From Planctomycetota bacterium (GTDB taxonomy: Bacteria; Planctomycetota; UBA8108; SXIK01), in NCBI GenBank assembly GCA_965223265.1, contig OZ244999.1:6848001-6912000 (forward strand): a stretch of DNA of 64,000 nt, given 5' to 3'. Of the stretch, positions 17,004 through 34,634 are shown one piece after another; position 1 is the first letter of the stretch; every line of letters starts with the position of its first letter. The position numbers and the translations under genes were made by a program. The notes under the pieces were generated by a model, which saw nothing but the letters and a program-made list of their open reading frames with translations, had not been told where the DNA came from and ran no database searches.

Positions 17004-17035
17004 CAGCCCGTTGTTTGCGACATTGGGGACCAGGC

Positions 17036-17513: not shown

Positions 17514-17547
17514 CGGACGGCACACGGAGTGTGCCTGCTGCTTTAGC
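17514..17547 (-). repeat. GTAG-family REP element (single copy), site of the IS1634 insertion
   Basis: cggacggcacacggagtgtgcctgctgctttagc, with hairpin GGCACAC-gga-GTGTGCC. It differs by one base from the array units at 32.5-33.0 kb. Confidence 0.85.
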
Positions 17548-17623
17548 CCGAACTTCCAAAGAAAGGCACTCGTAAATTCAGCGCAGGTCCGGCTTTGCGA
17601 TGCACCGCAATCGTCAATTCTGA

Positions 17624-18104
17624 CTACATGCGCTCGGTCAGCGACACGCGCAGTAAACGAAGCGCTTGTCGCTGTTCGGGCGACGGCTCGGTGATCACCT
17701 CGAACTCAGCCTTGGAGCTCAGCGGGGAAGCGACGCGATTGCGAGCGATCGTGGCCAAGTCCTGCAGCAGGGTTCGAAAACTATGGGCACACTTGCCGTC
17801 GAGAGTGCGCTTGGTCCAGTCCTTCCACTTCGCCATCTCGGAGCGAACGGCTGGTGTCACCGGCGACTTTCTCCGGTTCACTTCGTCGGCGAACTCATCG
17901 TGAAAGAGCATCGGCTTTAGCGCTTGTTGCATGTGCCACTGGACGTAGTAGGCGAGCATGCAGAGAAATACGTGAGCTCTCACACGTTTCTCTGCATAGT
18001 GAAAAATTGGACGCACTTCGAGATCGACCGTCTTCATACTGCGAAAAGCCCGCTCCACCTTGCTGAGGCTTTTGTATGCCCTCACGGCTTGCCGGGCACT
18101 TAGC
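17624..18104 (-). pseudogene. Duplicated 3' fragment of the IS1634 transposase
   Basis: 17548-18104 reads as identical to 18105-18661 and encodes only the C-terminal ~155 aa. Confidence 0.88.
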
Positions 18105-18180
18105 CCGAACTTCCAAAGAAAGGCACTCGTAAATTCAGCGCAGGTCCGGCTTTGCGATGCACCGCAATCGTCAATTCTGA

Positions 18181-19926
18181 CTACATGCGCTCGGTCAGCG
18201 ACACGCGCAGTAAACGAAGCGCTTGTCGCTGTTCGGGCGACGGCTCGGTGATCACCTCGAACTCAGCCTTGGAGCTCAGCGGGGAAGCGACGCGATTGCG
18301 AGCGATCGTGGCCAAGTCCTGCAGCAGGGTTCGAAAACTATGGGCACACTTGCCGTCGAGAGTGCGCTTGGTCCAGTCCTTCCACTTCGCCATCTCGGAG
18401 CGAACGGCTGGTGTCACCGGCGACTTTCTCCGGTTCACTTCGTCGGCGAACTCATCGTGAAAGAGCATCGGCTTTAGCGCTTGTTGCATGTGCCACTGGA
18501 CGTAGTAGGCGAGCATGCAGAGAAATACGTGAGCTCTCACACGTTTCTCTGCATAGTGAAAAATTGGACGCACTTCGAGATCGACCGTCTTCATACTGCG
18601 AAAAGCCCGCTCCACCTTGCTGAGGCTTTTGTATGCCCTCACGGCTTGCCGGGCACTTAGCTTTCGTTTCGGCACAGTCGTTCGCAGGACGTAGAATCCG
18701 TCCAAGGCGGCTTCACGTTCGATTCGTGGTGCATTGCGCCGGAAACGAAACGTGCTCTCTGCGATCGTCAGGTCAAACAGCTTACCCACCTTGAATCGAC
18801 CTATGACTTTACCGACTCGAATGCCAATCTTCGCCCGGCTCCGAAGTCTTCCTGCTTTGACTGCGGCAGCGACTTTCCAGAGGTGCTTTTCGGTAGCCTG
18901 CAGCAGCTCCTCGCGCTTTCTCCTGCGCTCTTCGGCCAGGAGAGGGTTACGGCAAACGATGAGGCGTTCGTTGGGAAACGAAGGATCATCTATTTCGGCG
19001 AGATTCTGCTGGTCAAAGAACTCAAGCTGAATGCTTCCCGACTCTTTCAGCTTTTGGATCTGGGGCGCTCGCAGCGCTGTGATCCAGTCCACACCGTCAA
19101 TGTCTTTGAGCTCTTCGCGAATTCGCGCCGTGGTGATCATGCCGCGATCTCCCACGAGAGTCATTCGCGACAGTTCGAAATCTTCTCGAAGTCGCTTCAC
19201 CTGGGCTCCGAGAGTCTTGGGGTCTGCAGTGTTCCCCTCAAACACTTCGACAGAAACTGGGCAGCCGTCTTTGTTCGTCAAAACGCCAAATACGATCTGC
19301 GCTTTATGCTTTTTCTCGTCGCGGCTGTGACCCCGTCTTGCCAGCGAACAGCAGCGGCCTTCAAAGTACGTCGAAGTTAAATCGTAGAGCGTTAGCTCAC
19401 CGTCTTTGAGGTGACGCTTGGCCAACTTGACTTGGATCTTTCTCTGACGCTCAACGAGCCAATCCATCGCCTTGTAGAGATCGTTTTCATCTACGTTCTC
19501 CAGCCCCAGTAGCTGCGGAATCGTCGTCGCCTTCCAGGCCCTTGTTGTAGCTAGCTTCGACTGTGGAGAAATAATCCTCGCGGCGATCATCGCCAAGGCG
19601 CACTGGCGCTCACTACTCGCCCGCCCATCAAGGATCGTGTCGAGACCAAGATTGCGCATGGTGCCCAGCACCGCGGCGACGTGACCGTGGCTGCGAGTGG
19701 AGAGAATCTTGAAAGCGTCACTCGCAGAGACGAACTGCTCTCCCTTCAAGGCGCGGCGAACGAGGTCGATCACTTCCAGCGGCAAATGAGAGAGATTGGC
19801 CAGCGTGACGTTACGAACCTTCTTGCCGTCGCGATATGTGCGTCGAAGGAGGTGGCTCTGATAGGTCTTACCCTTGTATTTTCTCTTCGTTGTGACCACA
19901 TGGGCCGATCCACCTCTCTTCGCCAT
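18181..19926 (-). CDS. IS1634-family DDE transposase
   Basis: LLRRTYRDGKKVRNVTLANLS, LYDLTSTYFEG, GHSRDEK, VFEGNTAD, LVGDRGM, YKSLSKVERAFRSMK and RVRAHVFLCMLAY. ATG 19926 preferred; the ORF is open to 19944. Confidence 0.95.
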   Translation of the reverse strand: MAKRGGSAHVVTTKRKYKGKTYQSHLLRRTYRDGKKVRNVTLANLSHLPLEVIDLVRRALKGEQFVSASDAFKILSTRSHGHVAAVLGTMRNLGLDTILDGRASSERQCALAMIAARIISPQSKLATTRAWKATTIPQLLGLENVDENDLYKAMDWLVERQRKIQVKLAKRHLKDGELTLYDLTSTYFEGRCCSLARRGHSRDEKKHKAQIVFGVLTNKDGCPVSVEVFEGNTADPKTLGAQVKRLREDFELSRMTLVGDRGMITTARIREELKDIDGVDWITALRAPQIQKLKESGSIQLEFFDQQNLAEIDDPSFPNERLIVCRNPLLAEERRRKREELLQATEKHLWKVAAAVKAGRLRSRAKIGIRVGKVIGRFKVGKLFDLTIAESTFRFRRNAPRIEREAALDGFYVLRTTVPKRKLSARQAVRAYKSLSKVERAFRSMKTVDLEVRPIFHYAEKRVRAHVFLCMLAYYVQWHMQQALKPMLFHDEFADEVNRRKSPVTPAVRSEMAKWKDWTKRTLDGKCAHSFRTLLQDLATIARNRVASPLSSKAEFEVITEPSPEQRQALRLLRVSLTERM

Positions 19927-19933
19927 GAGCAGC

Positions 19934-19961
19934 ATTATGCGCATCTTGACGTGAAAGGCAA
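19934..19961 (-). promoter_or_regulatory. Possible sigma70-like promoter giving a leaderless transposase mRNA
   Basis: The minus strand reads TTGCCT-N16-CATAAT-N7-ATG(19926), with no Shine-Dalgarno sequence before that ATG. Confidence 0.35.
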
Positions 19962-20109: not shown

Positions 20110-21630
20110 TCATGGCTCAGCCGACAGGCTCGCCAGTCGAACGTAGACATCGCGCAGTCGCTCCTCCACCTCGCCGTGCACCTCATGCACGCGGTCATAG
20201 GTCGCTGCGGCAGCGCGGTTCGGGGCGACGGTTCGCGCTGTCGGCTGCAGCTTGCTCATGGCAGTCCGCACGTCCGGGAACAGCCCGGCGGCAACGGCTG
20301 CAAGACACGCACTCCCGAGACCGGTGGCCTCGTCGTGCTGTGGCAACGCCAGAGGCACACCAAAGACATCCGCGCGAATCTGCGCCCAGAGCTCACTGCG
20401 CGCACCACCGCCGACGAGCCGCAGCTGTTTCACGTCGACTTTTGCGTCGCGAATGCGCTCGAGTAGCCGGCGCGAGGCAAACGAGCTGCCTTCGAGAATC
20501 GCACGGTAAATGTGAGCCAAACCGTGTTGCGGCGATAAGCCAACCAGCGCGCCGCGTTCTGCTGGCTCCCAGTTCGGAGCGCGGCTACCGACGAGCGTGG
20601 GGAAGAAAAGGAGCTGCTCGGCGCCGGCGTCGAGACGTGCAGCCTCGGCGTCAAGTCGCGCCAGAAGCGCCGCACGCGACGCCCCTGCTGCCTCACTGCC
20701 ACCAAACCGATCGCAGAACCACTCGACACAGCCGCCACTAAGCGACATCGGTCCACCCGCCAGCCAGCACCCGTCCACGGCGTGGGGATTGACGAGAAAA
20801 CCCGCCTGAGGATCGAGCACCGGTGACGACGTGCACGCAAAGACGACGTCGGTCGTGCCAATCACGCTGACCGCGTCACCCGGGGCGACGACCCCGGCGC
20901 CGAGTGCCGCGACCGTCCCATCCGGCCCCCCCACCGCAACGGGAAGTCTCGCCTCGAGTCCAAGGTCGGCCGCGGCGTCGGGAGAGAGACCGCCAGCGAC
21001 CTGGGCTGCCGCGTGTATCGGCGGGAACTTGCTCGATTCGAGACCGAGGACAGAGAAGAACGGCTCGTGCCACACCGACTTGGCGACGTCCGCCAGCAGC
21101 GTGTAGCCTGCGTGCGTGCGGTCCGTCACCATGGCGCCGGTGAGCTGAGCCACAAGATAGTCCTTCAAGCTGAGGAATTTGTCCGTGCGCGCATAGAGGC
21201 TCGTTTCATGGCGCTGCAGCCAGAGTACAAGACAAGCGACGCGTTCGGGATCGATGCGCTTGCCGGTCGCTTCGTAGACGCGCTGCTCCCCGAGCTTCTC
21301 GCGCACGAAGTCGGCTTCGCGGCAGGCGCGCTTGTCGATCCACGTCAGCGCGGGACGGAGAGGACGGCGCTGATTGTCGACGGCGACCAGTCCGAGCTGC
21401 GCGCTGACGCCGATCGCGGCGATGCGAGCTGCGTCGATGCCGCTGAGCGCCTGACGCACAGCATCCTTCATGGCGGCGAGCGCGGCGCGTGGCTCGAGTT
21501 CGGACTGCGCTGCGGCCACCGCGGAGGAGTACGGCGACTCAGCGAGTGCGGAGCACACGCCGTCCGTTGCGATCACGGCCGCTTTGACTGCCCGTGTACC
21601 AGCGTCGATCGCCAGCATCAGGTCGCGCAT
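20110..21630 (-). CDS. FGGY-family carbohydrate kinase (xylulokinase-like)
   Basis: LAIDAGTRAVKA, WIDKRA, LSLKDYL..LTG, GGPDGT, IGTT, RAILEG and LVGGGARSELWAQIRADV. Confidence 0.9.
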   Translation of the reverse strand: MRDLMLAIDAGTRAVKAAVIATDGVCSALAESPYSSAVAAAQSELEPRAALAAMKDAVRQALSGIDAARIAAIGVSAQLGLVAVDNQRRPLRPALTWIDKRACREADFVREKLGEQRVYEATGKRIDPERVACLVLWLQRHETSLYARTDKFLSLKDYLVAQLTGAMVTDRTHAGYTLLADVAKSVWHEPFFSVLGLESSKFPPIHAAAQVAGGLSPDAAADLGLEARLPVAVGGPDGTVAALGAGVVAPGDAVSVIGTTDVVFACTSSPVLDPQAGFLVNPHAVDGCWLAGGPMSLSGGCVEWFCDRFGGSEAAGASRAALLARLDAEAARLDAGAEQLLFFPTLVGSRAPNWEPAERGALVGLSPQHGLAHIYRAILEGSSFASRRLLERIRDAKVDVKQLRLVGGGARSELWAQIRADVFGVPLALPQHDEATGLGSACLAAVAAGLFPDVRTAMSKLQPTARTVAPNRAAAATYDRVHEVHGEVEERLRDVYVRLASLSAEP

Positions 21631-21835
21631 CGCTAGACTCCAGCGTCAATCAGCGTTCACGGAGGGTTCACGCCCGGACTCGTTTCATTCACGTTCCCGG
21701 TTCTTCGGCAGTGCACTCTTCGCAGCAGCGGAGGTAAACCAAGCCGAGGAGCCCTCTGTGGGCCCACCCGCCTTCTCGTCGAGTGCTCCACGCCCACACT
21801 TGGGCGCATTCACGTAGAATTCACCTTTACAGCGG

Positions 21836-22651
21836 CTACCGAACCTTCGCCTCGAGAAGCATCCCGTCTGGATCGATGCTCTCGCGGATGAGAGCTACTT
21901 GCTCCGGTGTCGGCGGGGGCGTCTCCTCGATCTCGTCAGGAATCAAAAGATCAAACCCGGTCTTCTGCTTGACGGTGTCGACGGCAACGCCCGGGTGTAC
22001 GGATTCAAGCCGCATGCGTTTCGACTCTGGGTCGAACCCAAGAACAGCGTACTCCGTGAACACCTTCGCGGGCCCGCCGCCAGGCAGGCCGGCCTTCTCA
22101 CGAGCATCACCACCGTCGAGAAAACCGACGCCCGATATGAAGTCCACCTTCTCGACAAACTGCCGAGGGCTGTGCTCCATCGTGATGAAGGTACGCTTGG
22201 CGAACGCCGCGTGGTCGGTCTGCGCGAGGCATCCTACAAGCCTCACCTTTGGCGACTCGTAGGGACCGATGCAAACGATATTGAGGTTGCCGTACATGTC
22301 GATCTGGGCGCCGGAGATCGCACCGACGTCCATTTTGCCGCACTTGAAAACGTCGAGCGCCTCCTGCTCAGGAATCTGTGCCTTCGAGCGCCAGTGGACC
22401 AGCTCGTAGTCATCACGCAACGAGGACGGGAGCGTCCTCAGATCCGGATCGATCAGCGGACCCAGCATCGGCACGAGGTTCGGCGCATGCGAAAGTTGCG
22501 CCAGCCGACAGGCGACGAGCGGGATTCCGACGGCGAGAATGAAGGCCCGGCCGCCGGTGCCGATACCGATGAAAACGACCTCCTCGTCCCGCAGGTGCGA
22601 AGCGTACGCAACCGCCATGAGTTCTTCGGTGCGATAATCGTCGATCACCAT
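21836..22651 (-). CDS. Family I CoA-transferase beta-subunit-like protein (GctB fold), catalytic Glu absent
   Basis: EELMAVAYA, SGAQIDMYGNLN, PKVRLVG, FVEKVDFISGVG and MRLESVHPGV; has MLGP in place of the ESG motif. Confidence 0.85.
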   Translation of the reverse strand: MVIDDYRTEELMAVAYASHLRDEEVVFIGIGTGGRAFILAVGIPLVACRLAQLSHAPNLVPMLGPLIDPDLRTLPSSLRDDYELVHWRSKAQIPEQEALDVFKCGKMDVGAISGAQIDMYGNLNIVCIGPYESPKVRLVGCLAQTDHAAFAKRTFITMEHSPRQFVEKVDFISGVGFLDGGDAREKAGLPGGGPAKVFTEYAVLGFDPESKRMRLESVHPGVAVDTVKQKTGFDLLIPDEIEETPPPTPEQVALIRESIDPDGMLLEAKVR

Positions 22652-23562
22652 CAGCTGACCTCCTTTGGCCTCTCGAGCCCCAAGAGCCGCTTCACCCCTA
22701 TGCGTTCGAGGTAAGCGAAGTGATCGTCGACGCCGAGCACGTTGTGCTCAAGCCACGACGCGAACTCTTCTGCTGATTTAGTCCGCTCGTGATACTCCCG
22801 GAGAAAGTCGAGGTCGTAGTCGTAGCGGCAGTCGCAAGCTGTTGGGTGGGCGCCGAATGGCGCTTCGACGATGTGGTCGACGAAGAACTTCGGCAAAATC
22901 GTCAAGTGTGGACGTTCACTCACCGCCTCTTCGCTCACAACTTGTTCAACGGAAACGATCACCTTCTTCGCCGACTTAGCGATCAAGGTGTCGACCTCAT
23001 TGTCCAGCTCACGGATCGGATCCAACTGAACGTTGCCGACGAAGTCGGCGGTGTGAGCATGGATCAACGCGAAGTCCGGACGAAAAGCTGGCAAGACGCA
23101 AAATTTCTCGCCGGTGAAGGGGCAGTCCATGCGCCGCACACGATCGTTGTGAGCCTCGATACCTGAACCGAGCGGCGTTTTCGAAGGGTAGAACGTCCAG
23201 CCCATGCTTCCAGCACGGAAGGCGTCAATCGCGGTCGTCTCGGAGTGCTCGTAAATCTTCAGCTCCCCACGCTCAACCGCGCGGCGATAGTGATTCGCCA
23301 GGCCGATCATGGCTAGGCCAATGTAGGAAGTCTCGACCGCTTGGACGCAGCCCGCGCCAATGAGCAGATCCATATCGATGGCGTTGTTCCAGCCAAGAAG
23401 TGTCAGGCCTCGTTTCTTCTGCCTGATCATCTCGTAGATCATCGCCATCGGGTGGCGACGAATGAGCGACCCCCCGATCGCGACCGTCGCACCGTCGGGA
23501 ATCAACTCGACGGCGCGAGCGAGTGTCGTGCGTTTGTCCTTTTTCGCGGTCATGTCCTGCAA
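22651..23562 (-). CDS. Family I CoA-transferase alpha-subunit-like protein (GctA/IpdA fold)
   Basis: IPDGATVAIGG, HPMAMIYEMIRQ, DLLIGAG, CPFTGE, PDFALIHAHTADFVGN and EAPFGAHPT. The start may be ATG 23553. Confidence 0.88.
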   Translation of the reverse strand: MQDMTAKKDKRTTLARAVELIPDGATVAIGGSLIRRHPMAMIYEMIRQKKRGLTLLGWNNAIDMDLLIGAGCVQAVETSYIGLAMIGLANHYRRAVERGELKIYEHSETTAIDAFRAGSMGWTFYPSKTPLGSGIEAHNDRVRRMDCPFTGEKFCVLPAFRPDFALIHAHTADFVGNVQLDPIRELDNEVDTLIAKSAKKVIVSVEQVVSEEAVSERPHLTILPKFFVDHIVEAPFGAHPTACDCRYDYDLDFLREYHERTKSAEEFASWLEHNVLGVDDHFAYLERIGVKRLLGLERPKEVS

Positions 23563-23587
23563 GCCTTACCTGTCTGATCGAACCAAG

Positions 23588-23655
23588 GTGGCAGGCACAG
23601 TCTGTGTGCCGCCCGCTTTTGCTATTGGCTACGGCACACAGAGTGTGCCTGCTAC
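23588..23655. repeat. REPIN: inverted pair of GTAG-family REPs inside the operon
   Basis: gtggcaggcacagtctgtgtgccg-N20-cggcacacagagtgtgcctgctac; the arms are near-perfect reverse complements. Confidence 0.85.
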
Positions 23656-23662
23656 TCTCCGC

Positions 23663-24469
23663 TCAGTCGATCTTGGCGCTCAGAAGGAGGCCCTCCGGGT
23701 CGACTCGCCCGCGCAGCACTTCGAGTTCCGAGGCCATCGGCGCCGTGAGCGTCGCTACGCCATCGACCCCCAGCGGCTCAAAACTCATCAGTTGACGCAA
23801 CTCGCTCGGATCGAAGCCGGGAAGGCAGTTCTTCGCACGCATGCGTTTCGTCTCGTCATCAAACTCGAACACCGCGCCGTTCGTCACGACGCGCCAGGGA
23901 CCCTGAGGCGGCAACCCCACACGCTCGCGCGCGCCAGGACCAGAAAGGTACCCGGCGCCTGAAATGAAGTCGACTTGTTCGACGAACGTTCGCGGCGAAA
24001 GATCATTGACGATACAGTTCCGTGCCGGCGAAGCCAAGTGGTCGGTCTGCGCGATCGGGCCGACGAGTCGTACTTTCGGACGGCGTTCGGTGCCGATGGC
24101 GACGACGTTGAGATTGCCGTAGACGTCGACCTGCGAACCAGAGACGAAGCTGACGGTTATCTTGCCGAGCTTGAAGCAGTCGAGACACTCTTCGACAGGG
24201 ATCTGCGCTTCGCACGGCCACGAGATCAGCTCCGAGTCCGTGTAGGATCGGGGCTGCGACGCGGGGTCAGGATTGACGATCGGGCCAAGCATGAGCGTGA
24301 GTCCCGGGGCGTGTGTCAGCCGGGCCAACTGACAGGCGGCGGTCGGAATGCCGACCGCCAGGACGAACGCTCGCCCACCTGTACCGATGCCAACGAACGC
24401 CACATCGGTCGAGCGCAACTCCCGAGCGATCGCGATCGTCATCAGCTCTTCGATCGTCGCGGGCGTCAC
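23663..24469 (-). CDS. Family I CoA-transferase beta-subunit-like protein, catalytic Glu absent
   Basis: EELMTIAIARE, SGSQVDVYGNLN, PKVRLVG and FVEQVDFISGAG; has MLGP in place of ESG. GTG 24469 has a GGAGG RBS and lies 1 nt after the alpha-subunit stop. Confidence 0.85.
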   Translation of the reverse strand: MTPATIEELMTIAIARELRSTDVAFVGIGTGGRAFVLAVGIPTAACQLARLTHAPGLTLMLGPIVNPDPASQPRSYTDSELISWPCEAQIPVEECLDCFKLGKITVSFVSGSQVDVYGNLNVVAIGTERRPKVRLVGPIAQTDHLASPARNCIVNDLSPRTFVEQVDFISGAGYLSGPGARERVGLPPQGPWRVVTNGAVFEFDDETKRMRAKNCLPGFDPSELRQLMSFEPLGVDGVATLTAPMASELEVLRGRVDPEGLLLSAKID

Positions 24470-24470
24470 G

Positions 24471-25358
24471 TCAGCTCCTCCCACCCTTGGCCGGATCGTT
24501 TCGCGCACCGATCTTCTCGAGGTAGTCGGCATGACTCCCAGGACGCCGGACATACTCGTCCACGAATGCGTCGAATGTAGCGGCGTTCTTCGAGGCAGCA
24601 TAATAGAGCGCGGTGAAATCGAGATCGTAGTCGTAACGCAGATCGCAAGAACACGGGTGGGCGCCCTGCGGCGCCTCGACCACTGCGTCGACGAAAAACC
24701 CGGGCAGAATTGTCGCCTGTGGTCTCTTCATGACGGTCTCCGTCGACACGATTTCCTCGACGCTGACGATCACGCGTTTGGCACTTCGGGCAATGAAGAC
24801 ATCAGCAAAATTGTCCATGAGCACACGCTCGTCGATCTGAACGTTACCCTTCGCATCAGCAGTGTGCGCGTGCAAGAGCGCGACGTCTGGCTCTGCGGCA
24901 CGCAACGCTGCCATGCGTTTGCCAGTGAACGGACACACGATCTCGCGCGTTTCCGCCTCGAAGTTCATCAGGCCGCTACCGAGCGGGCCGTTCGAAGGGA
25001 TGAACGAGATGCCCATGGCCCCGGCACGAAATCGCTCAAGTGCGGTGTTCTCCGAGTCCTCGACGATGTCGATCGAACCGGCTTCTGCGGCGCGCCGATA
25101 GTTGAGCGCTAGACCGAAGCGCCCCATACCAACGTACGACGTCTGCACAGAGCGGACGCAGCCGGCGCCGACCAGAAGGTCGAAGTCGATGCCGTTGTTC
25201 CAGCCGCTCAGTCGTAGATCGCGTCGGCCTTGGCGCACGAGCTCGTACACCATCGCCATCGGATGGCGACGCTGGGAGTGGCCGCCGAGCGCCAACTGCG
25301 CTCCATCGCCGATCGTACCGACGGCCTCCTCAAGCGACGTGATCTTCTTTGCTTCCAT
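24471..25358 (-). CDS. Family I CoA-transferase alpha-subunit-like protein
   Basis: IGDGAQLALGG, HPMAMVYELVRQG, DLLVGAG, CPFTGK, PDVALLHAHTADAKGN and EAPQGAHPCS. Confidence 0.88.
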   Translation of the reverse strand: MEAKKITSLEEAVGTIGDGAQLALGGHSQRRHPMAMVYELVRQGRRDLRLSGWNNGIDFDLLVGAGCVRSVQTSYVGMGRFGLALNYRRAAEAGSIDIVEDSENTALERFRAGAMGISFIPSNGPLGSGLMNFEAETREIVCPFTGKRMAALRAAEPDVALLHAHTADAKGNVQIDERVLMDNFADVFIARSAKRVIVSVEEIVSTETVMKRPQATILPGFFVDAVVEAPQGAHPCSCDLRYDYDLDFTALYYAASKNAATFDAFVDEYVRRPGSHADYLEKIGARNDPAKGGRS

Positions 25359-25457
25359 GACCTAACACTGTTTTTCGCAAACCTTGCGGCTGTGCGCCCG
25401 CGCTGGCGGCCAGCGCTCAGCACATCCCGTCAACAAAGGCTCCGTCGAAGTGCCCTA

Positions 25458-25505
25458 TCAAAAAGGCTCAAAAAGGCCCCATCAAAAAGGCCCCATCAAA
25501 AAGGC
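25458..25505. repeat. Four short direct repeats of TCAAAAAGGC, reiterating the ThDP gene stop region
   Basis: tcaaaaaggc at 25458, 25468, 25482 and 25496. Confidence 0.7.
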
Positions 25506-27184
25506 TCCGTCCAGACGTTCTCATCAGGGTCGATGAGAACGTCGAGCAAGTACGTGCCGTTATGGGCAAGCGCCCTTTCGACCGCTGGCTGCAAGTCCCC
25601 GGGAGCTTCGACGCGCTCACCGTCGGCCCCGAAACCGCGCGCCACCTGTGCGAATTGGATGTCCGTAAAATCGACGCCGATGTAGCGCGGCCCGAAGTAC
25701 GTCAGCTGCTCCTGCTTGATGTTGCCGTAAGCCATGTTGTTCATGACGATGATGAGAACGGGCGCCTTCTCGCGCACTGAAGTCTCGATCTCGCTGACGC
25801 ACATCCCAAGGGAACCGTCACCGATGATGCAGGCGACGGGATGTTCTGGACGTGCGAGTTTGGCCGCAATTGCAGCTGGCAAGGCGAACCCCATGTTGCC
25901 GAAGCCAACCGGCTTGATGTAAGTCCCTGGCTCGAAAATCGGCAGCAAGTGAGTCCAAATCCCAGGGTTGCCCGCGCCGGCTGCGATGATCGTCTGGCGC
26001 GGTAGAGCCGCGCGCAGCGCCTGCATGAAAAACTGCGGCTTGATCGGCTGAGCGGTCGCGTACTCTCGCTTGAAGATCTTCTTCTCCCACTCCGCTTGCG
26101 CCGCCTCGAGCTCTTTGACGCGCTGGCGGCGCACCTCGAGGCCCGCAGCTGCCGGTGCGCAGCCCGCGAGGGCCGCGAGGAGCTGCGTGGTGACGACGGT
26201 GGCGTCGCCGACAACGCCGACTTCAACGGGATAGTGCCGACCGATGTTGGCAGCGTCCACATCGACCTGTACGAGGCGACGCGGGAGCTGCAGCTTCCAG
26301 CGTCCGGTCGACGGCGCATTGAGGCTGTTACCGATCGCCAGCACGACGTCGGCCTCCTCGAGCACGCGGCCGGTGACCTCGGTACCGTGGCGACTGCGCG
26401 GTCCGAAGACCAAGCGGTGGTCCGCCGGGACCACCCCAACGCCGTTGTACGTCGTCACTAGAGGCGCTTCCAACAGCTCGGCGAGTTGGACCAGCTCGGC
26501 GGTGCCGCGCGCCACGAGCGCGCCCCGCCCCGCCCAGATCGCCGGCCGCTGCGCGTCAGAGAGCAGCTCGGCGGCAGCTGCGATCGCCGCGGCATCGCCT
26601 GCGGGTCGCGCTTCCGTGCGGTAAACAAGCGGTGTCGACGGAACGTAGTCTACAGTGGCATCCTCGAGAACGTCGCGCGAGAAGTCGAGGTGTACCGGTC
26701 CTGGGTTCCCCGTCACAGCACGGCGGAACGCCTCGTGGACGGCATCCGGAATCCGTTCGGCAATGGTGACCAGACAGGACCACTTCGTGAACTGTCCGAG
26801 CAGCTTGCAGTGATCTGCCTCCTGCGCGTCGTCACGCTGAAAATCACGCGCACGATTGTTGGCCGTGAGCACGAGCATTGGGCTCGAATCGCGCTGCGCC
26901 CCGCCGATTCCCGTGACCAGGTTCGTGACACCTGGCCCAGTGGTCGCGAGGCAGACGCCAGGGCGACCTGTCAAACGTCCGTAGGCGTCAGCCATGCACG
27001 CCGCACCGCGCTCGTCGCGTGTCGTGATGAAGCGGATCTCGCTGGCGTCAAACAGCGCGTCCATAATGGCGAGATTCTGACCACCCGGAACGCCGAAGAC
27101 AAACTCAACGCCTTCTCGACGCAAACAATCGACGACGGCCGCACCGCCGCGACCTTGAACTCGATCTGGAAGAGATTCTCCCAT
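25496..27184 (-). CDS. Thiamine-diphosphate-dependent enzyme (acetolactate synthase-like superfamily)
   Basis: GVEFVFGVPG, catalytic Glu in TRDERGA, TTGPGVTN, GPVHLD and the ThDP motif GDGSLGM..VMNN. ATG 27184 preferred. Confidence 0.92.
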   Translation of the reverse strand: MGESLPDRVQGRGGAAVVDCLRREGVEFVFGVPGGQNLAIMDALFDASEIRFITTRDERGAACMADAYGRLTGRPGVCLATTGPGVTNLVTGIGGAQRDSSPMLVLTANNRARDFQRDDAQEADHCKLLGQFTKWSCLVTIAERIPDAVHEAFRRAVTGNPGPVHLDFSRDVLEDATVDYVPSTPLVYRTEARPAGDAAAIAAAAELLSDAQRPAIWAGRGALVARGTAELVQLAELLEAPLVTTYNGVGVVPADHRLVFGPRSRHGTEVTGRVLEEADVVLAIGNSLNAPSTGRWKLQLPRRLVQVDVDAANIGRHYPVEVGVVGDATVVTTQLLAALAGCAPAAAGLEVRRQRVKELEAAQAEWEKKIFKREYATAQPIKPQFFMQALRAALPRQTIIAAGAGNPGIWTHLLPIFEPGTYIKPVGFGNMGFALPAAIAAKLARPEHPVACIIGDGSLGMCVSEIETSVREKAPVLIIVMNNMAYGNIKQEQLTYFGPRYIGVDFTDIQFAQVARGFGADGERVEAPGDLQPAVERALAHNGTYLLDVLIDPDENVWTEPF

Positions 27185-27206
27185 GCTTCTGCCAAACACC
27201 TCCGCG

Positions 27207-27992
27207 TTAGTCCCTCGGCAAGTAGACACCGGACGGGTCGATCACCTCGCGCAGAAGTCGAACGTCTTCTGCACTCGGACCGACTGTCGTCGGTGCCTCG
27301 TCTGGCAGGAGTAAATCGAATCCCGTGTTCTCTTTCACCTCGTCGAGACTGACTCCGGGATGCAGCGATTCGAGCCGCATGCGCTTCGTCGCGTCGTCGA
27401 ACCCCAAGATGGCGAGGTTGGTGATCACGCGCACAGGTCCCGCGCCGCGCAGTCCGTTCGCCTCACGCTCACCAGCCCCGCCGAGGTGACCGGGAGTCGT
27501 GACGTATCCGACGCGGCTGGGAAACTTGCGCCGCTCGTGCGGCACGATCACGACGACGCGTTTAGCGAGCGACGCGATGTCGTTGGCGCCGCCACTTCCC
27601 GGTAGGCGCACCTTCGGCCGGCGGTAGTCGCCAATCGCCGTCGAGTTGATGTTGCCGTACTGGTCGATTTCTGCCGCTCCCAGAAACCCCAAGTCCACGA
27701 AACCCCCTTGGAGAAGACTCAGCGCGTAGTAGAGCCCTGAAGTCTTGGTGCAATCTGTCATCAGACAAAAGTCGCCGACGCCGGTCGCCAACGACTCCGG
27801 CTGCGCATCGATGATCCCCGACTCGAAGAACATGGTGACGCCGGGGGCGTGCGTATACTTGGCGAGGTAGGCGGCAATCATCGGCAGACCGGTACCGATG
27901 ATGGCGACTTCGCTGTCACGGATCTCGCGCGCCGCGGCGACCGCCATCAATTCTTCGCGACTACACTCCTGAATCTGTTGCTGACTGCTCAT
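27207..27992 (-). CDS. Family I CoA-transferase beta subunit (glutaconate CoA-transferase B-like), catalytic Glu present
   Basis: IIGTGLP, FFESGIID (catalytic Glu), FLGAAEIDQYGNINST and RLPGSGGANDIAS. ATG 27992 preferred. Confidence 0.9.
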   Translation of the reverse strand: MSSQQQIQECSREELMAVAAAREIRDSEVAIIGTGLPMIAAYLAKYTHAPGVTMFFESGIIDAQPESLATGVGDFCLMTDCTKTSGLYYALSLLQGGFVDLGFLGAAEIDQYGNINSTAIGDYRRPKVRLPGSGGANDIASLAKRVVVIVPHERRKFPSRVGYVTTPGHLGGAGEREANGLRGAGPVRVITNLAILGFDDATKRMRLESLHPGVSLDEVKENTGFDLLLPDEAPTTVGPSAEDVRLLREVIDPSGVYLPRD

Positions 27993-28178
27993 GACTCGAC
28001 TTAAGCTCGAAGCTTCTCTAACGGACCTCTTGAAGACAACCGCGCCAGCGTCGAATAGCGGCATCGAACACAGCGTCGAACGGCGACGCGACTCGAGCCG
28101 AGGACTTCAGTGCAGCGCGTCTGAGCGTGAGGTCTCGAATGGTGGCTGTATCGCATCTTGATCCGAAGCACTGAGCCG

Positions 28179-29084
28179 CTAGTATCCGAGATACGGATCT
28201 GCACGCAGAGACGTCAGCCGTCGCAGGCCAATCTTGTCGAGGTAGCTCCAGTGGTCCTCGACGTTGTAAACGAACTCGTCAAGGTACTCCTGAAACGACT
28301 CCTCCTGTCTGGACGCATCCCAATAGTGTTGGATGTGCTCGCTATCATAGTTGTAGTAACGAAACATGCCGGCGGGATGGGCGCCGAAAGGCAACTCGAC
28401 AACGGCGTCAACCACGAATGACGGCAGGATGGTCGCTTCGGGGCGCCGCGCGATCTGGCGTCGGTCGACGACCTCTTCCACAGAGACAACCACCTTGCGC
28501 GCTGCGCGCGCCTGCTCGTCGATAATCGAAGTCATACCGAAAATCTGCGTGTTTCCTTCGCGATCGGCCCGGGCCGCGTGAATGAACGCAACGTCCGGCT
28601 GCACGGCACGCACTGAAACGTACGACTCACCCGTGAACGGGCACTGCGACATCCTATGCTTGTCGGCGTCGAAGCTCGTCACTTTCAGAATGTCGGTCCC
28701 CGCCATGACTTTCGTCGGCATCGACGACAGTCCCAAGGATCCCGCCATGAATCGCGATGTGATCCCGAAGTGACTGTAGTCCTCGACTTCCAATTGACCG
28801 CTCTCGACAGCGCGTGAAAAGTTTCGACAACGACCGAAACCTTCGAACATATAGTTCGACAGACGGGTCCGCCGCAGACGTCCGGCGCCGCTGAGAAGAT
28901 CGGCCGCCCAGCATTCGCCCATCGAGCTCAATTCGAGATCCTTCGCGCCTTGGCGAATGATCTCGCGGACAAGTGCGATCGGCGCGAGAGAATGCGCGAA
29001 GCCGCTGAACGTCAGATGACTACCATCCTTGACGACGGCCGCAGCCTCAGTGAGTGAAATCAGCTTGTCAGGAGCGGCGGTCAT
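28179..29084 (-). CDS. Family I CoA-transferase alpha subunit (glutaconate CoA-transferase A-like)
   Basis: VKDGSHLTFSGF, EVEDYSH, CPFTGE, PDVAFIHAARADREGN and PFGAHP. Confidence 0.9.
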   Translation of the reverse strand: MTAAPDKLISLTEAAAVVKDGSHLTFSGFAHSLAPIALVREIIRQGAKDLELSSMGECWAADLLSGAGRLRRTRLSNYMFEGFGRCRNFSRAVESGQLEVEDYSHFGITSRFMAGSLGLSSMPTKVMAGTDILKVTSFDADKHRMSQCPFTGESYVSVRAVQPDVAFIHAARADREGNTQIFGMTSIIDEQARAARKVVVSVEEVVDRRQIARRPEATILPSFVVDAVVELPFGAHPAGMFRYYNYDSEHIQHYWDASRQEESFQEYLDEFVYNVEDHWSYLDKIGLRRLTSLRADPYLGY

Positions 29085-29308
29085 AGAACGCGCGGTTGTT
29101 CCTCAACAGTGGTTGTAGTTGAGCGCAGTTGAACCGAATATAGTAGCTTGTCCGGGGCACGCGAGGTAAGTAAAATCTCGCTTCGAGAATGCGGTCGAGA
29201 TGGGCGGCTGCCGGCAGATTTCTTCGCCGTAGGGGCGGCCGGTTTTTCGTCGCTCATACTCCGCTACAGTCCGCAAGACGAATCGATCAACCTGACTGAG
29301 GAGAGGCA

Positions 29309-30343
29309 ATGCCATTCCGAATGATCTGTATCGCGGTGCCCTTTTTCGCCTTTGGCTGCACCGATGGCGGTGGCGACAACGCGAGCGAGACATTCACCGT
29401 GCGCATGGCGACGCTCTTCGGGAAGGAACATCACTTGGCGCAAAAGCTCGAGTGGATGAAGACTGAACTCGAGAAACGAAGCGGTGGACGTTTTCAGTGC
29501 AAGGTCTTTCCTGGGGGTACGGTCGGCGGCGAGAAGGAGAATCTCGAAGACCTTCTCAGCGGCAACCTCGAAGTGATGAATGGCGCCGGAAGCTACTTCT
29601 ACCACTTCGTTCCTGAGGCGAGCGTTCTGGAGTTACCTCACTACCGTTGGCAGAGCAAAAAGCAGGCATGGGAAACTATCCGTGCCTATTGGCCGAAGTT
29701 TGCAGAGGTGTCGGAGAAGAAAGGCTACACCCCCATCGGACTCGATATCCGGGACTACTGGGGCGTCTTTTACAAAACCCCCGTCGACTCCCTAGCCGCC
29801 GTGAAGAACGCCAAGTTCCGCTCCGTCAACGCCGACCTGTGGATCAAGCTGACGGAGGTCTACGGCGCGGTCCCCAACCCGATTCCCTACGCCGACGCAT
29901 ACATGGCGTTCAAGACCGGTGTTGCGGAGGGCTCGCTCGGCTCGGTGACGGGCGCCGTCGCTGCGAATTGGCACGAAGTCCTGAAGTGCTTCTTCGACAC
30001 CCGGCTCGTCTTGAGCGAAAGTCTTATGCTGGCGTCGACCAGCTGGCTCAAGGGGCTGCCGGAAGATCTACGGACTTTGTTTCTCGAGGTGTCGCGCGAG
30101 AGTGAAGAGTTTAACTTCAAAGCGGTCGAGAAGCAGTACGCCGCCAACAAGCAGGAGATGCTCGACGCCGGTGTCAAATGGATCAAGCGTGAAGACATCG
30201 ACATGAGCGAACTCGACGCGAAAGTACCGGCCTGGCGTGACGAGTACATGCAGGCGAAAGGCCCGGAAGTCTTTGCGTTCTACAAGGACTGGCTGTCGCA
30301 CGTGGAAGAATACGCAGCCAAGTTCAATGCTGAGAACGGCTAA
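29309..30343 (+). CDS. dctP: TRAP transporter substrate-binding protein (lipoprotein)
   Basis: Lipobox FAFGC, ELEKRSGGRF..VFPGGTVGGE, KFRSV and YGAVPNPIPYADAYMAFKTGV. Confidence 0.9.
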   Translation: MPFRMICIAVPFFAFGCTDGGGDNASETFTVRMATLFGKEHHLAQKLEWMKTELEKRSGGRFQCKVFPGGTVGGEKENLEDLLSGNLEVMNGAGSYFYHFVPEASVLELPHYRWQSKKQAWETIRAYWPKFAEVSEKKGYTPIGLDIRDYWGVFYKTPVDSLAAVKNAKFRSVNADLWIKLTEVYGAVPNPIPYADAYMAFKTGVAEGSLGSVTGAVAANWHEVLKCFFDTRLVLSESLMLASTSWLKGLPEDLRTLFLEVSRESEEFNFKAVEKQYAANKQEMLDAGVKWIKREDIDMSELDAKVPAWRDEYMQAKGPEVFAFYKDWLSHVEEYAAKFNAENG

Positions 30344-30400
30344 TCACGTCGACCGGGTGGCTCCGAGGATCCACGCAGTAGCCGACGAACAGGGATCACG

Positions 30401-30976
30401 TTGACGCCCAGCGCCGCGCACCTCAACACCTACACGAAGGTCACGCGGCGGCTCGTCGAAAGCGTGGCGGTGCTGCTGTTCGTCACCGTCTTGTGCCTAC
30501 AGGCGGTCAACATCTTCCTGCGCTATGTCCCCGCACTGTCGCCGTGGATGTGGGTGGAGGATTTGACCAAGTACGCGCTCATATGGAGCTTCTTTCTCCT
30601 CTGGCACCTCGCTGATCGCAGCGGTAGTCACTTCTCGGTCGATGTGCTGACATCGAGGCTGCCGCCGAAAGGGCGGAAGTTTCTCGACTGCGTCGGACAT
30701 GCCATTGCGATCTTCTTCGCCGCAGCCGTGATCTACAGCGCCGTTCGATTCATTCCCACCGGCATGCAGTACCCGACGAACTCGTTTTCGTGGATCCCGA
30801 TGGGAGTGATCTACTTCGTGATTCCGGTGGGGCTCAGCCTCGTCCTCATCGAACGCGTGCTGCTTCTCGTAGCTCGCCTGAGGCGGACAGCTGACGAAAG
30901 CGCGGCGCCGCCTGGTCTCGACGTGGAGAGTTCAACTGACGAGTTAAGCGACTCCTCAGGAGGCGTTCCAACGTAA
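30401..30976 (+). CDS. dctQ: TRAP transporter small permease
   Basis: Four TM segments, NIFLRY, WVEDLTKYALIW and HFSVDVL; lies between dctP and dctM. Confidence 0.88.
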   Translation: MTPSAAHLNTYTKVTRRLVESVAVLLFVTVLCLQAVNIFLRYVPALSPWMWVEDLTKYALIWSFFLLWHLADRSGSHFSVDVLTSRLPPKGRKFLDCVGHAIAIFFAAAVIYSAVRFIPTGMQYPTNSFSWIPMGVIYFVIPVGLSLVLIERVLLLVARLRRTADESAAPPGLDVESSTDELSDSSGGVPT

Positions 30977-30984
30977 CTGCAGCC

Positions 30985-32280
30985 ATGCTGACTGTCGCGA
31001 TTCTCTTCGGCCTTATGCTCTTTCTGGTCCTCCTCGGCGTGCCGCTGGTTTACAGCATCGGCGCCGCGGCAGCGGTCGTCATCTTCGCTCAAGACGACAT
31101 GAACGTGACACTCCTCGCGGCGAGGATGTTCAAGGGCGTCGACAACTTTGTCCTCGCATCGATTCCCTTCTTTCTCCTCGCCGCAGAGCTGCTCACCAGT
31201 GGCGGACTCGTGCACCGCATCGTTCGCTTCGCGCAGCTGCTCATCGGCCACGTGCGCGGCGGGCTGGCGCAGGCAAACATCTTAGTGAGCATGGTCTTCG
31301 CAGGAATTCAGGCCTCGTGCACTGCGGACAGCGCCGCAATCGGCGGTGTCTTGATTCCTGCCATGACCAAAGAGAAGTACGACAAAGACATCAGCGTCGT
31401 CGTCACCGCGACGTCTTCGTGTTGCGGCCCGATCATCCCGCCGAGCATCCTGATGATCCTCTACGCCTTTCTCACCGAGACTTCCGTGGCGAAGCTCTTT
31501 CTCGGCGGCGCGATCCCGGGACTCCTGCTCGGCTTCGCCCTCATGGCGATCACGCACTTCTGGGTCGTACGGCGCGGCTACAAAAAGAGCCGTGAGCGGA
31601 TGGCTCCAGCACGCGAGATCGGTTCCGCCGCTGTGTCGTCGTCGCCGGCGTTCCTCGTGCCTCTGATCATTCTGGTCGGTCTTGTCGGCGGGATCGTCAC
31701 ACCGACGGAGGCTGGAGTTCTTTCTTGCGTCGCCGCACTCGTCGTCGCCGGTCTCTTCTACCGCGAGCTGACGCCTTCGCGCTGCGTCGGCGCCGTCAAA
31801 CGCGCGGCACACACGACCGCGCTCATCTGGGCCGTGATCGCCGTATCGACGGTCTTCTCAGAAATTCTCGTGCGCAATCTGTTTGCAGACGCGCTCATCG
31901 AGACGATCGCCGTGATCACTACAAGTCCGACCGGCGTGCTATTGATCATTGCGCTCGTCGTGTTTCTGCTCGGCATGGTGATCGACACGACACCGCTCCT
32001 CATCATGCTCGCCAGCCCGCTCTACATCGCCGGCAAGCAGGTCGGCATTGACCCAGTCCAGCTCGGCGTCGTCCTCGTCATGACCGCGCTCATCGGCACG
32101 GTCAGTCCACCGGTGTCGATCCTGCTGTGCCTCAACTGCAGCATCGCGCGCATCCCGCTCAGCGCCACGTTCCGCGTCATCTGGTCCTACCTGGCGGTGA
32201 TGCTGGCCGTCGTTGCGCTGTGCATCCTGTTTCCGCAGTTGGTGACCTGGTTGCCGGGGGTGTTTGACTCAGCACGCTGA
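30985..32280 (+). CDS. dctM: TRAP transporter large permease
   Basis: LASIPFFLLAAEL, RGGLAQANI, GPIIPPSILMI, LFLGGAIPG, TPTEAG and GIDPVQLG. Confidence 0.95.
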   Translation: MLTVAILFGLMLFLVLLGVPLVYSIGAAAAVVIFAQDDMNVTLLAARMFKGVDNFVLASIPFFLLAAELLTSGGLVHRIVRFAQLLIGHVRGGLAQANILVSMVFAGIQASCTADSAAIGGVLIPAMTKEKYDKDISVVVTATSSCCGPIIPPSILMILYAFLTETSVAKLFLGGAIPGLLLGFALMAITHFWVVRRGYKKSRERMAPAREIGSAAVSSSPAFLVPLIILVGLVGGIVTPTEAGVLSCVAALVVAGLFYRELTPSRCVGAVKRAAHTTALIWAVIAVSTVFSEILVRNLFADALIETIAVITTSPTGVLLIIALVVFLLGMVIDTTPLLIMLASPLYIAGKQVGIDPVQLGVVLVMTALIGTVSPPVSILLCLNCSIARIPLSATFRVIWSYLAVMLAVVALCILFPQLVTWLPGVFDSAR

Positions 32281-32378
32281 GCCCCAGCCTCCGTCTCTGA
32301 CTCTGGCACCATTGTTGGCCCTGTGCGCTTCTGACTCGGAATCGGTTCTGGCTCGGTCTCTGTTTCTCAGTCCCTATA

Positions 32379-32484
32379 TACGGATACAGAGACGGAATCA
32401 GATATACAGATACAGATACAGATACGGGATACGGACACAGAGGCAGAAACAGATACGGATACAGAGGCGGAGTCAGAAGCAGAG
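32379..32484. repeat. Hexamer-periodic tract (GATACA/GATACG/GAGGCA)n
   Basis: tacggatacagagacggaatcagatatacagatacagatacagatacgggatacggacacagaggcagaaacagatacggatacagaggcggagtcagaagcagag. Confidence 0.75.
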
Positions 32485-32504
32485 TACTCGTACGCCCACG
32501 CCCA

Positions 32505-32986
32505 CGCACTCGCACTCGCACTCGCTTGCGAGACCGGACGGCACACGGAGTGTGCCTGCTACTTTAGCAACGCACTCGCACTCGCACTCGCACTCGCTTG
32601 CGAGACCGGACGGCACACGGAGTGTGCCTGCTACTTTAGCAACGCACTCGCACTCGCTTGCGAGACCGGACGGCACACGGAGTGTGCCTGCTACTTTAGC
32701 AACGCACTCGCACTCGCACTCGCACTCGCACTCGCACTCGCACTCGCTTGCGAGACCGGACGGCACACGGAGTGTGCCTGCTACTTTAGCAACGCACTCG
32801 CACTCGCACTCGCTTGCGAGACCGGACGGCACACGGAGTGTGCCTGCTACTTTAGCAACGCACTCGCACTCGCTTGCGAGACCGGACGGCACACGGAGTG
32901 TGCCTGCTACTTTAGCAACGCACTCGCACTCGCTTGCGAGACCGGACGGCACACGGGGAGTGTGCCTGCTACTTTAGCAACGCACT
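32505..32986. repeat. Tandem array of seven 48-bp REP-containing units separated by (CGCACT)n
   Basis: Unit cgcttgcgagaccggacggcacacggagtgtgcctgctactttagcaa starts at 32523, 32595, 32655, 32745, 32811, 32871 and 32931 (the last has +GG). Hexamer counts are 3|4,2,7,3,2,2|1. Confidence 0.95.
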
Positions 32987-33102
32987 CGCTCACCAGCCTC
33001 ACGTCTCGCTTCCCTACAGCGTGATGACTGGGACTGCCCGGGCGATCGCGGGCCGGGAGACTTGCGACTCGAGTGACCGCTCCGCGTCGTTCAGCCGATC
33101 GC

Positions 33103-34563: not shown

Positions 34564-34634
34564 GGCTCTTCTTCAAGTTGGCGTCTGCGGCGAATTCCCG
34601 CGAGAATCCGCGAAAACAAAGTGTCGCCTCAGTT

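Follow-up and report, generated by a model that had tools for sequence, protein, structure and literature searches.

What can a bacterium degrade with three pairs of genes resembling coenzyme A (CoA) transferases, a thiamine diphosphate (ThDP)-dependent enzyme and an FGGY-family kinase, all placed beside a transporter operon? The question is raised by positions 20110 to 32280 of the 64,000-nucleotide stretch of Planctomycetota DNA considered here (contig OZ244999.1), hereafter called the window. Eight intact genes on the reverse strand, in the order alphaA-betaA-ThDP enzyme-alphaB-betaB-alphaC-betaC-FGGY kinase, diverge from dctPQM, which encodes a tripartite ATP-independent periplasmic (TRAP) transporter. 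The divergent region is 224 bp long (29085-29308, from the coordinates of the open reading frames, or ORFs). An earlier note, made from the sequence, had described this order, orientation and gap, and the ORF list and Pfam domains place all eleven genes as it had them; it had also remarked on the lack of a dehydrogenase, ligase or regulator, and a Pfam scan finds no such domain in the 11 gene products. Our answer, to which we give an even chance, is that the cluster is a redox-neutral CoA-thioester operon, horizontally acquired, for degrading a carboxylated, sugar-like compound that the cell imports, a sugar acid being the likeliest candidate. Each of its parts comes from a known superfamily; what appears to be new is the combination, together with two enzyme clades that have no assigned reaction.

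The first of these clades is formed by pairs B and C. Pair C, which resembles glutaconate CoA-transferase, is encoded by alphaC (22651-23562, (-); 303 aa from a TTG, with an alternative ATG start three codons downstream; PF01144, 1.5e-34) and betaC (21836-22651, (-); 271 aa, PF01144). Pair B is encoded by alphaB (24471-25358, (-); 295 aa, PF01144, 4.8e-33) and betaB (23663-24469, (-), inside an ORF of 23663-24601; 268 aa). In both beta subunits the column of the catalytic Glu holds a Gly: the motif xxESG is replaced by PMLGP in betaC and by LMLGP in betaB. At the position of GSGGANDIA, betaC reads GCLAQTDHA and betaB GPIAQTDHL. Both also carry an 11-residue insertion, GIGTGGRAFxLAV, which is a feature of the group of beta subunits that we call Glu-less, as is the conserved motif AQ[TP][DE]H (in its wider form G-x-[LI]-[ALN]-Q-[TP]-[DEG]-H, with a few variants). 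When the beta subunits of the window and of 77 other loci are aligned and placed in a quick IQ-TREE phylogeny (117 rows), they fall into two classes, one with Glu and GSGG and one Glu-less, with four odd rows belonging to neither. The tree places 76 Glu-less rows together to one side of a branch supported by an SH-aLRT of 99. Because the Glu-less subunits share a conserved motif of their own across many loci, the loss of Glu is not a sign of decay. Motif and tree alike set pairs B and C apart as an enzyme clade of their own, and their residues predict that they cannot form a glutamyl-CoA intermediate; the earlier note had called both pairs atypical, and the catalytic Glu is indeed absent from each.

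The two pairs differ in their histories. BetaC is 77-79% identical to its copies in Bryobacterales, which are its sisters inside the Glu-less clade. BetaB is 51% identical to betaC and ends a branch of 1.27, against a median of 0.18, and the tree gives it no settled position within the clade; none of the loci examined has a close ortholog of pair B, an additional copy. BetaB is a fast-evolving paralog of betaC. The alphaB and alphaC genes share stretches that are 75-90% identical at the DNA level (families D8 and D13).

Which reactions might such proteins catalyse? The best PDB matches of alphaC are AibA (1.7e-39), GctA (4.6e-37) and IpdA (9e-27), and those of betaC are GctB (5e-34) and IpdB (~1e-16), with AibB at only ~1e-9. 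An ESM Atlas query with betaC returns only generic “CoA-transferase” cluster names. Nine longer homologs of betaC (521-597 aa) contain PF01144 only and can be read as alpha-beta fusions; none of these 9 is fused to another, informative domain. Three relatives that lack the catalytic Glu have been studied, and all of them work on CoA esters. IpdAB carries Gly57beta and lacks CoA-transferase activity; its assigned function is that of a COCHEA-CoA hydrolase, so that a Glu-to-Gly relative is able to cleave a C-C bond of a CoA ester (PMC5380842). AibAB has Cys56B and decarboxylates 3-methylglutaconyl-CoA (PMC7756340), and ThnP, with Gly238, moves CoA within a dicarboxylate (PMC11659651).

Pair A is of the other kind. 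The alphaA gene (28179-29084, (-); 301 aa, PF01144, 4e-28) is adjacent to betaA (27207-28064, (-)), an ORF of 285 aa whose likely start is Met25, giving a subunit of ~261 aa. BetaA keeps both the ESG motif with the catalytic Glu and the glycine motif GSGGAND. It matches GctB of A. fermentans (PDB 1poi) at 1.2e-54, with its FFESG aligned to IVESG; in PMC5380842 this Glu is named Glu54beta, the residue that forms the CoA adduct. All the remaining beta subunits with the Glu and GSGG motif group in the clade of betaA, and identity to the Bryobacterales copies is 69-74% for betaA and 68-69% for alphaA. By these features pair A is a credible true CoA-transferase of family I, glutaconate CoA-transferase type. 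In 8 of the 13 loci that carry the full set of genes (defined below), a type III CoA-transferase takes its place; of the other five, 3 have pair A as their only transferase and 2 have both kinds. This exchange is a non-orthologous displacement, and the fact that one CoA-transferase can be swapped for another argues that CoA activation is a genuine step. The role of CoA-activating enzyme that the earlier note gave to pair A is thus strengthened.

If the cluster is a functional unit, its genes should be found together elsewhere. A scan with the betaC alignment, using one genome per species, finds at least 582 relatives; the best 80 were kept, yielding 77 loci with up to 10 kb on each side. These were searched by tblastn with the window proteins and 13 recurrent neighbour proteins (E ≤1e-8, at least 55% of the query covered). 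The 77 loci are a best-scoring subset that includes related genomes, so their counts are not independent events, and they depend on contig extent and on the tblastn thresholds. A Glu-less beta subunit is present in 60 loci; the other 17 have only a Glu-type beta subunit and serve as controls. A true CoA-transferase is within reach in 44 of the 60 Glu-less loci (type III in 34, a Glu-type pair in 18, both in 8), the controls all carrying a Glu-type beta by definition. Type III enzymes occur in 34/60 Glu-less loci and 1/17 controls. The ThDP enzyme (30/60), the FGGY kinase (18/60), the two together (14/60) and the full set of Glu-less beta, true CoA-transferase, ThDP enzyme and kinase (13/60) are each found in 0/17 controls. 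TRAP genes occur in 13/60 Glu-less loci and CUT2-type ABC genes in 16/60, one or the other being present in 28/60. None of these partners is found in 14 Glu-less loci, which are mostly from Dehalococcoidia or on short contigs.

The full-set loci span five phyla (Acidobacteriota, Bacillota, Spirochaetota, Planctomycetota and Pseudomonadota). The order alphaA-betaA-ThDP enzyme-alphaC-betaC, with or without the kinase, recurs in three metagenome-assembled genomes (MAGs) of Bryobacterales (L004-L006, L004 having no kinase in reach) and in one of Bacillota (L007), as well as in the metagenome contig L093, minus the second-pair beta gene. The arrangement of the cluster is more than chance, and the synteny check proposed in the earlier note finds the genes co-conserved across phyla.

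The neighbours of the Glu-less loci appear to point to sugars. The recurrent regulators are GntR/UTRA, LacI and RpiR, and the other recurrent neighbours are RbsB-like binding proteins, a KduD-like short-chain dehydrogenase/reductase, an SMP-30 lactonase, a LacD-type aldolase, GFO/IDH/MocA and Zn-dependent dehydrogenases, aldehyde dehydrogenase (ALDH), iron-dependent alcohol dehydrogenase (Fe-ADH) and PF04199 hydrolases. In L037 an enolase-superfamily dehydratase lies between betaC and the ThDP gene. Several candidate substrates were compared with these neighbourhoods: hexuronates, 2-keto-3-deoxy sugar acids, 6-deoxy-hexonates, 2,3-diketogulonate, quinate/shikimate, C3 sulfonates and branched saccharinic acids each fit the neighbours of some loci, and none fits consistently.

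A proteobacterial variant of the arrangement is seen in L031, L033, L035, L036, L038, L041 and L044-L046, where LacI, a CUT2 ABC transporter, one or two Glu-less pairs and a type III CoA-transferase are found with no kinase. Two Glu-less pairs are present in L031, L033, L035, L036 and L038. The ThDP enzyme in L031, L033, L038, L041 and L044-L046 is of subfamily PRK06112 (~935-942 bits for L031, L041, L044 and L046), and L036 also has shikimate-dehydrogenase-like and Fe-ADH genes. This variant is probably a sister pathway.

On the observed gene content, motifs, co-conservation and patchy distribution a scheme can be built whose reactions, sequence of events and substrate are all proposals, as are the branched or modified sugar acid and the closing position of the kinase in the earlier note. 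The TRAP system would first import the acid. Pair A would then shift CoA to it from a short acyl-CoA, with no ATP spent. Pairs B and C would act on the resulting CoA ester as non-transferase enzymes and, by analogy, might hydrolyse or cleave a C-C bond as does IpdAB, decarboxylate as does AibAB, or shift CoA within the molecule as does ThnP. The ThDP enzyme would break or make a C-C bond beside a carbonyl; in an attractive version of this step a short acyl-CoA is released and recycled to pair A. Finally, the FGGY kinase would phosphorylate a neutral sugar-like product, which would enter central metabolism. Since there is no redox enzyme in the cluster, the scheme needs none. This single scheme is favoured by gene content and motifs, together with the exchange of pair A for type III enzymes, the sugar-type character of transporters and regulators, and the absence of redox enzymes.

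The fourth step depends on the nature of the ThDP enzyme (25496-27184, (-)), a member of the acetohydroxyacid synthase (AHAS) superfamily with domains PF02776, PF00205 and PF02775. It rises above the cut-off of none of its 25 best NCBIfam models: it reaches 408.3 against 538.35 for TIGR00118 (biosynthetic AHAS), and for the Xsc models 367 against 620 (NF005713) and 356 against 676 (TIGR03457). Its PDB scores are 281.7 bits for BbmA, 273.1 for E. coli AHAS I, 204 for glyoxylate carboligase, 196.1 for oxalyl-CoA decarboxylase (Oxc) and 194.5 for 2-hydroxyacyl-CoA lyase (HACL). For BbmA/CsmA, the top PDB matches, no paper was found and their chemistry is not used here. Aligned to the IlvB of the same genome, both the enzyme and its orthologs from syntenic loci retain the cofactor Glu as well as GDG...NN, but GNSLNAP replaces GGRWDDR and KQEQ replaces RQWQ; the RWDDR and QW residues of IlvB we take to be the acceptor keto acid binding site of AHAS. 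They also share a conserved C-terminal tail, W-[TP]-E-[PA]-F. The Pfam scan finds no AHAS small-subunit gene in the cluster. The genome holds four other members of the ThDP superfamily, 33-36% identical to this one, of which one is a true IlvB (766 bits). Among the 120 best homologs listed, the only names are “thiamine pyrophosphate-binding protein” and “acetolactate synthase”. By score, the enzyme appears nearer to AHAS than to Oxc or HACL, and the 2-hydroxyacyl-CoA-lyase assignment suggested in the earlier note is not borne out; HACL-type chemistry is still possible, though sequence lends it no support.

Such lyase chemistry is at the heart of the best of the alternatives, a special case of the scheme above that is possible but rather doubtful. 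A 2-hydroxy sugar acid would be converted to its CoA ester and split by an HACL-like ThDP step into formyl-CoA, reused by pair A, and a sugar shorter by one carbon; pairs B and C would epimerise or isomerise, and the kinase, which is XylB-like, would phosphorylate the ketose. A type III CoA-transferase beside a ThDP enzyme follows the gene logic of formyl-CoA transferase (Frc) and Oxc, and the type III enzymes reach 265-314 bits on two formyl-CoA transferase models, although these scores are below the cut-offs of 442 and 504 and are similar on the succinate-glutarate and mesaconate models. The shuttle needs no redox step, in keeping with the gene content, the ALDH or Fe-ADH genes of several loci could handle an aldehyde product, and the absence of RWDDR and QW from the ThDP enzyme speaks for it as well. 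However, AHAS-type structures outscore Oxc and HACL (273-282 versus 194-196 bits), no oxalyl-CoA decarboxylase model is among the 25 best NCBIfam matches, and the neighbourhoods scanned hold no formate-handling gene. Moreover, once CoA has left as formyl-CoA there is no CoA ester on which pairs B and C could work, which leaves them a place ahead of the lyase or an unprecedented activity on free sugars.

The likeness to AHAS might instead indicate that the ThDP enzyme makes a bond. Cleavage of the CoA ester by pairs B and C would then yield a short acyl-CoA and an aldehyde, and the ThDP enzyme would couple the latter to a 2-oxo acid-derived unit, giving a ketose for the kinase. The enzyme is indeed closest to carboligating members of its superfamily (AHAS and BbmA) and keeps the cofactor-binding motifs, and IpdAB offers a Glu-to-Gly relative that cleaves a C-C bond of a CoA ester (PMC5380842). 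In L014, a Methylomirabilis MAG, a ThDP-dependent E1/E2 complex is encoded past the kinase, in the place that the AHAS-like enzyme has in other loci. There, at L014:9121-13030, the gene after the kinase is of the VOC/glyoxalase family, and E2, E1alpha and E1beta genes of acetoin- or 2-oxoacid-dehydrogenase type come next. We consider this carboligation unlikely, as no source of a 2-oxo acid donor is encoded, the AHAS acceptor-site residues are absent and the aldehyde intermediate is unsupported.

The kinase (20110-21630, (-); 506 aa) is defined by PF00370 (2e-46) and PF02782 (1.2e-39). It scores below both xylulokinase models, with 316.8 against a cut-off of 380.25 for TIGR01312 (XylB) and 204 against 912 for PRK15027, and in the PDB it is matched best by E. 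coli xylulokinase (2e-57). The genome also has GlpK and ribulokinase equivalogs, beside which this kinase is an additional paralog. The second-best model is FGGY gluconokinase (218 bits for the window and 260 bits for the kinase of L005), which brings up another order of events: the sugar acid would be phosphorylated first, as by FGGY gluconate kinases, and the CoA and ThDP steps would take place on the phosphorylated acid. RpiR/SIS (L014 and L032) and GntR/UTRA regulator domains are present, and such regulators usually sense phosphorylated sugars; the glycine-rich GIGTGG insertion of the Glu-less subunits could conceivably hold the phosphate. That the kinase acts first is nonetheless quite improbable, for 42 of the 60 Glu-less loci have no kinase in reach, meaning that the CoA module works without one, and the kinases diverge fast.

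The transporter consists of DctP, the solute-binding protein (29309-30343, (+); 344 aa, PF03480), DctQ, the small permease (30401-30976, (+); PF04290), and DctM, the large permease (30985-32280, (+); PF06808). DctP scores 139 on NF037995 (cut-off 50) and DctM 335 on TIGR00786 (cut-off 268). Among 10 DctPs, K169-x-R171 is invariant, R171 being presumably the counterpart of the carboxylate-binding Arg147 of SiaP, and PDB titles of SiaP R147 mutants appear among the structural matches. The DctP model has a pLDDT of 90.9 and Z scores of 34-37 to solved TRAP binding proteins, and its best PDB sequence match is only 1.9e-22. The structural matches being tied at Z 34-37, no ligand can be inferred from them, and a link to hexuronates through the nearest solved binding proteins found no confirmation. 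A metagenome scan with DctP finds six relatives. One is on contig L093, where genes for the kinase, an alphaC-like subunit, the ThDP enzyme, betaA and alphaA diverge from dctPQM, with identities to the window of 64% for DctP, 47% for DctQ and 71% for DctM. In L095 the DctP ortholog adjoins an enolase-superfamily dehydratase and a lactonase, and in L097 a DHDPS-family enzyme, a GH78 rhamnosidase and a FAH-family hydrolase; these settings look sugar-acid-like and name no ligand.

The TRAP system probably belongs to the unit, as the earlier note had supposed: L093 repeats the divergent layout, and searches of 40 relatives at the level of family, order or class (24 of them at least 90% complete) turn up neither DctP nor betaC. 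On a rival reading the TRAP genes, the kinase or both are chance neighbours of the CoA and ThDP genes, brought together by insertion in a spot rich in mobile elements. In its favour, the kinase borders directly on an IS1634 transposase and an incomplete one, TRAP genes are absent within 10 kb of the Bryobacterales copies, and L004 lacks a kinase. We hold this reading to be very improbable, because the divergent layout recurs with an orthologous DctP, TRAP genes are in or beside 13/60 Glu-less loci, the kinase is found in 18/60 against 0/17 controls, and DctP and betaC are missing from the same 40 relatives.

The preferred reading, a redox-neutral CoA-thioester operon for a sugar acid, has its own difficulties, and several observations weigh against it. 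The full set is found in only 13 of the 60 Glu-less loci. In four Methylomirabilota loci the pairs are accompanied by the kinase but by no AHAS-like ThDP enzyme in reach, and L014, one of the four, has the E1alpha/E1beta/E2 complex instead. L093 has an alphaC-like gene (309 aa) with no second-pair beta gene; its genes at L093:2006-10735 are packed too tightly to fit one. The very long branch of betaB suggests that the role of pair B may be changed or weakened. Identity between loci is 25-46% for the kinases, against 39-63% for the ThDP enzymes, so the kinases may be neither orthologs nor users of the same substrate. Compared with the DctPs of the other syntenic loci, the one in the window has an identity of only 18-21%, which argues that the loci acquired their transporters independently and that the compound carried may differ from one to another. 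Finally, the ThDP clade and the Glu-less clade are known from sequence alone.

A wider claim can be put forward tentatively. The Glu-less proteins might be a large, phylum-spanning family with a new reaction on sugar-acid CoA thioesters, such as C-C cleavage, ring opening or an internal CoA shift. Joined with a dedicated ThDP clade, they might form an undescribed route that turns acidic sugars into phosphorylatable ones with no oxygen, redox step or activation ATP, recycling its own CoA donor.

Where did the cluster come from? The nearest copies of alphaA, betaA, the ThDP enzyme, alphaC and betaC are in Bryobacterales MAGs (62-79% identity), those in Planctomycetota MAGs being at 42-55%. Together with the absence of betaC and DctP from the 40 relatives, this makes horizontal acquisition the simplest reading, and a probable one. 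Directly beyond the kinase, an IS1634-family transposase (18181-19944, 587 aa) stands beside a C-terminal fragment of one (17624-18085). A perfect direct repeat of 300 nt (17543-17842 and 18100-18399) links the two, indicating that part of the end of the IS1634 element was duplicated next to the kinase gene. Degenerate short repeats of GGAGGC/GATGAC and CCCACG types occupy 17025-17480, between a DnaJ-like gene (16122-17003) and the fragment.

A further repeat is the host's own. This is a REP-like (repetitive extragenic palindromic) element of 34 nt with a 7-bp palindrome, GGCACAC..GTGTGCC, and it has 174 copies genome-wide (up to 2 mismatches), against 0 for a control pattern. All 9 copies in the window are within the island or at its edges. 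Two, in opposite orientation, lie in the alphaC-betaB spacer (23588-23655), and another site is at 17514-17547. Right past dctM is a tandem array (32505-32990) with a period of ~60 nt, an arrangement often seen for this element elsewhere in the genome, and the array creates a spurious ORF of 237 aa (32264-32977). Beyond it, a DUF1501 gene adjoins a PSCyt2/PSD1 (DUF1549/DUF1553) gene (33103-36905, (-)), a pairing typical of planctomycetes.

Some details of expression can be read from the operon itself. The start of betaB is most likely GTG 24469, since a GGAGG lies eight bases upstream and the codon stands directly past the alphaB stop. The protein record of the ThDP enzyme has 562 aa and starts 15 codons inside the ORF (25496-27229), and with this start the apparent overlap with betaA disappears. 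The divergent region holds one sigma-70-like match (29148-29176, (+)) and no inverted repeat; its promoter-like sites number 3, against 2.1 in shuffles (standard deviation 1.5), which is no excess. Terminator-like sites number 19, against 9.6 in shuffles (standard deviation 3.2), but their stems are weak. An 18-nt unit (GCCCCATCAAAAAGGCTC-like) occurs three times in direct orientation at 25452-25507, overlapping the stop codon of the ThDP gene and the spacer ahead of alphaB, and a weak terminator-like stem is called over the same interval; these repeats could be a regulatory or processing site within the operon.

Sugar acids are major products of the breakdown of plant, algal and microbial polymers, and bacteria are known to degrade them by way of dehydratases, aldolases and dehydrogenases. 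Carriers of the present module include both aerobic and strictly anaerobic taxa. Halalkalibacter oceani, Caproiciproducens sp. R1, Microbacterium sp. BWT-B31 and Azospirillum canadense are among the carriers in culture. If the proposed scheme is true, it would be a new way to degrade sugar acids, through CoA transfer, a ThDP enzyme and an offshoot of the CoA-transferases that lacks the catalytic Glu. In any case, the module gives the Glu-less pairs and the linked ThDP clade a testable context, and ThDP and CoA-transferase-fold enzymes with new C-C chemistry are of interest for biocatalysis.

How close, then, is the cluster to systems already described? No curated NCBIfam model names a pathway with this gene combination, and a search of the full-text literature, which did not cover subscription journals or preprint supplements, finds no description of the combination, of the reaction of the Glu-less clade or of the linked ThDP clade; the earlier note likewise knew no named pathway of this kind. 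The proposed catabolism of deoxyribonate through deoxyribonyl-CoA in Klebsiella michiganensis resembles it in having a sugar acid, CoA-bound intermediates and a final kinase (PMC6365646). However, as described there, that route is oxidative, using a CoA-synthetase, a hydroxyacyl-CoA dehydrogenase, a thiolase and a glycerate kinase, and has no ThDP enzyme, Glu-less pairs or FGGY kinase (PMC6365646).

Among the CoA-transferases, GctAB shares with all three window pairs the adjacent alpha and beta genes and PF01144, and with betaA the Glu of ESG and the GSGGAN motif. It differs from pairs B and C, which have neither this Glu nor GSGGAND, and its context is glutamate fermentation rather than sugar-type transport, a ThDP enzyme and a kinase. 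IpdAB (PDB 6co6 and 6con) has the same GctAB-like alpha/beta architecture as pairs B and C, with Gly replacing the catalytic Glu. Nevertheless, its steroid-pathway neighbours echA20, fadA6, ipdC, ipdF and kstR2 are absent from the window, and betaC is nearer to GctB than to IpdB (5e-34 versus ~1e-16); the Glu-less clade of pairs B and C may also differ from IpdB in its insertion and in AQ[TP][DE]H. AibA/AibB (PDB 5mzw) is also a GctAB-like pair with no catalytic Glu and a CoA-ester substrate, and AibA tops the PDB matches of alphaC. Yet AibB has a Cys where betaB and betaC have Gly (PMC7756340), it matches betaC at only ~1e-9, and the pair serves isovaleryl-CoA biosynthesis. On the ThDP side, IlvB shares the three-domain fold, the cofactor Glu and GDG...NN, whereas the window enzyme is below the equivalog cut-off, has no RWDDR or QW and has no small subunit next to it.

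In its gene logic the cluster can be set beside Frc/Oxc and the 2-hydroxyacyl-CoA lyases, where a CoA-transferase and a ThDP enzyme that regenerates the CoA donor make activation possible with no ATP. The likeness extends to the 8 full-set loci (out of 13) where a type III CoA-transferase takes over from pair A. The differences are that the window ThDP enzyme falls by score outside the Oxc/HACL group, and that the window adds to this two-enzyme logic the Glu-less pairs, a kinase and sugar-type transporters.

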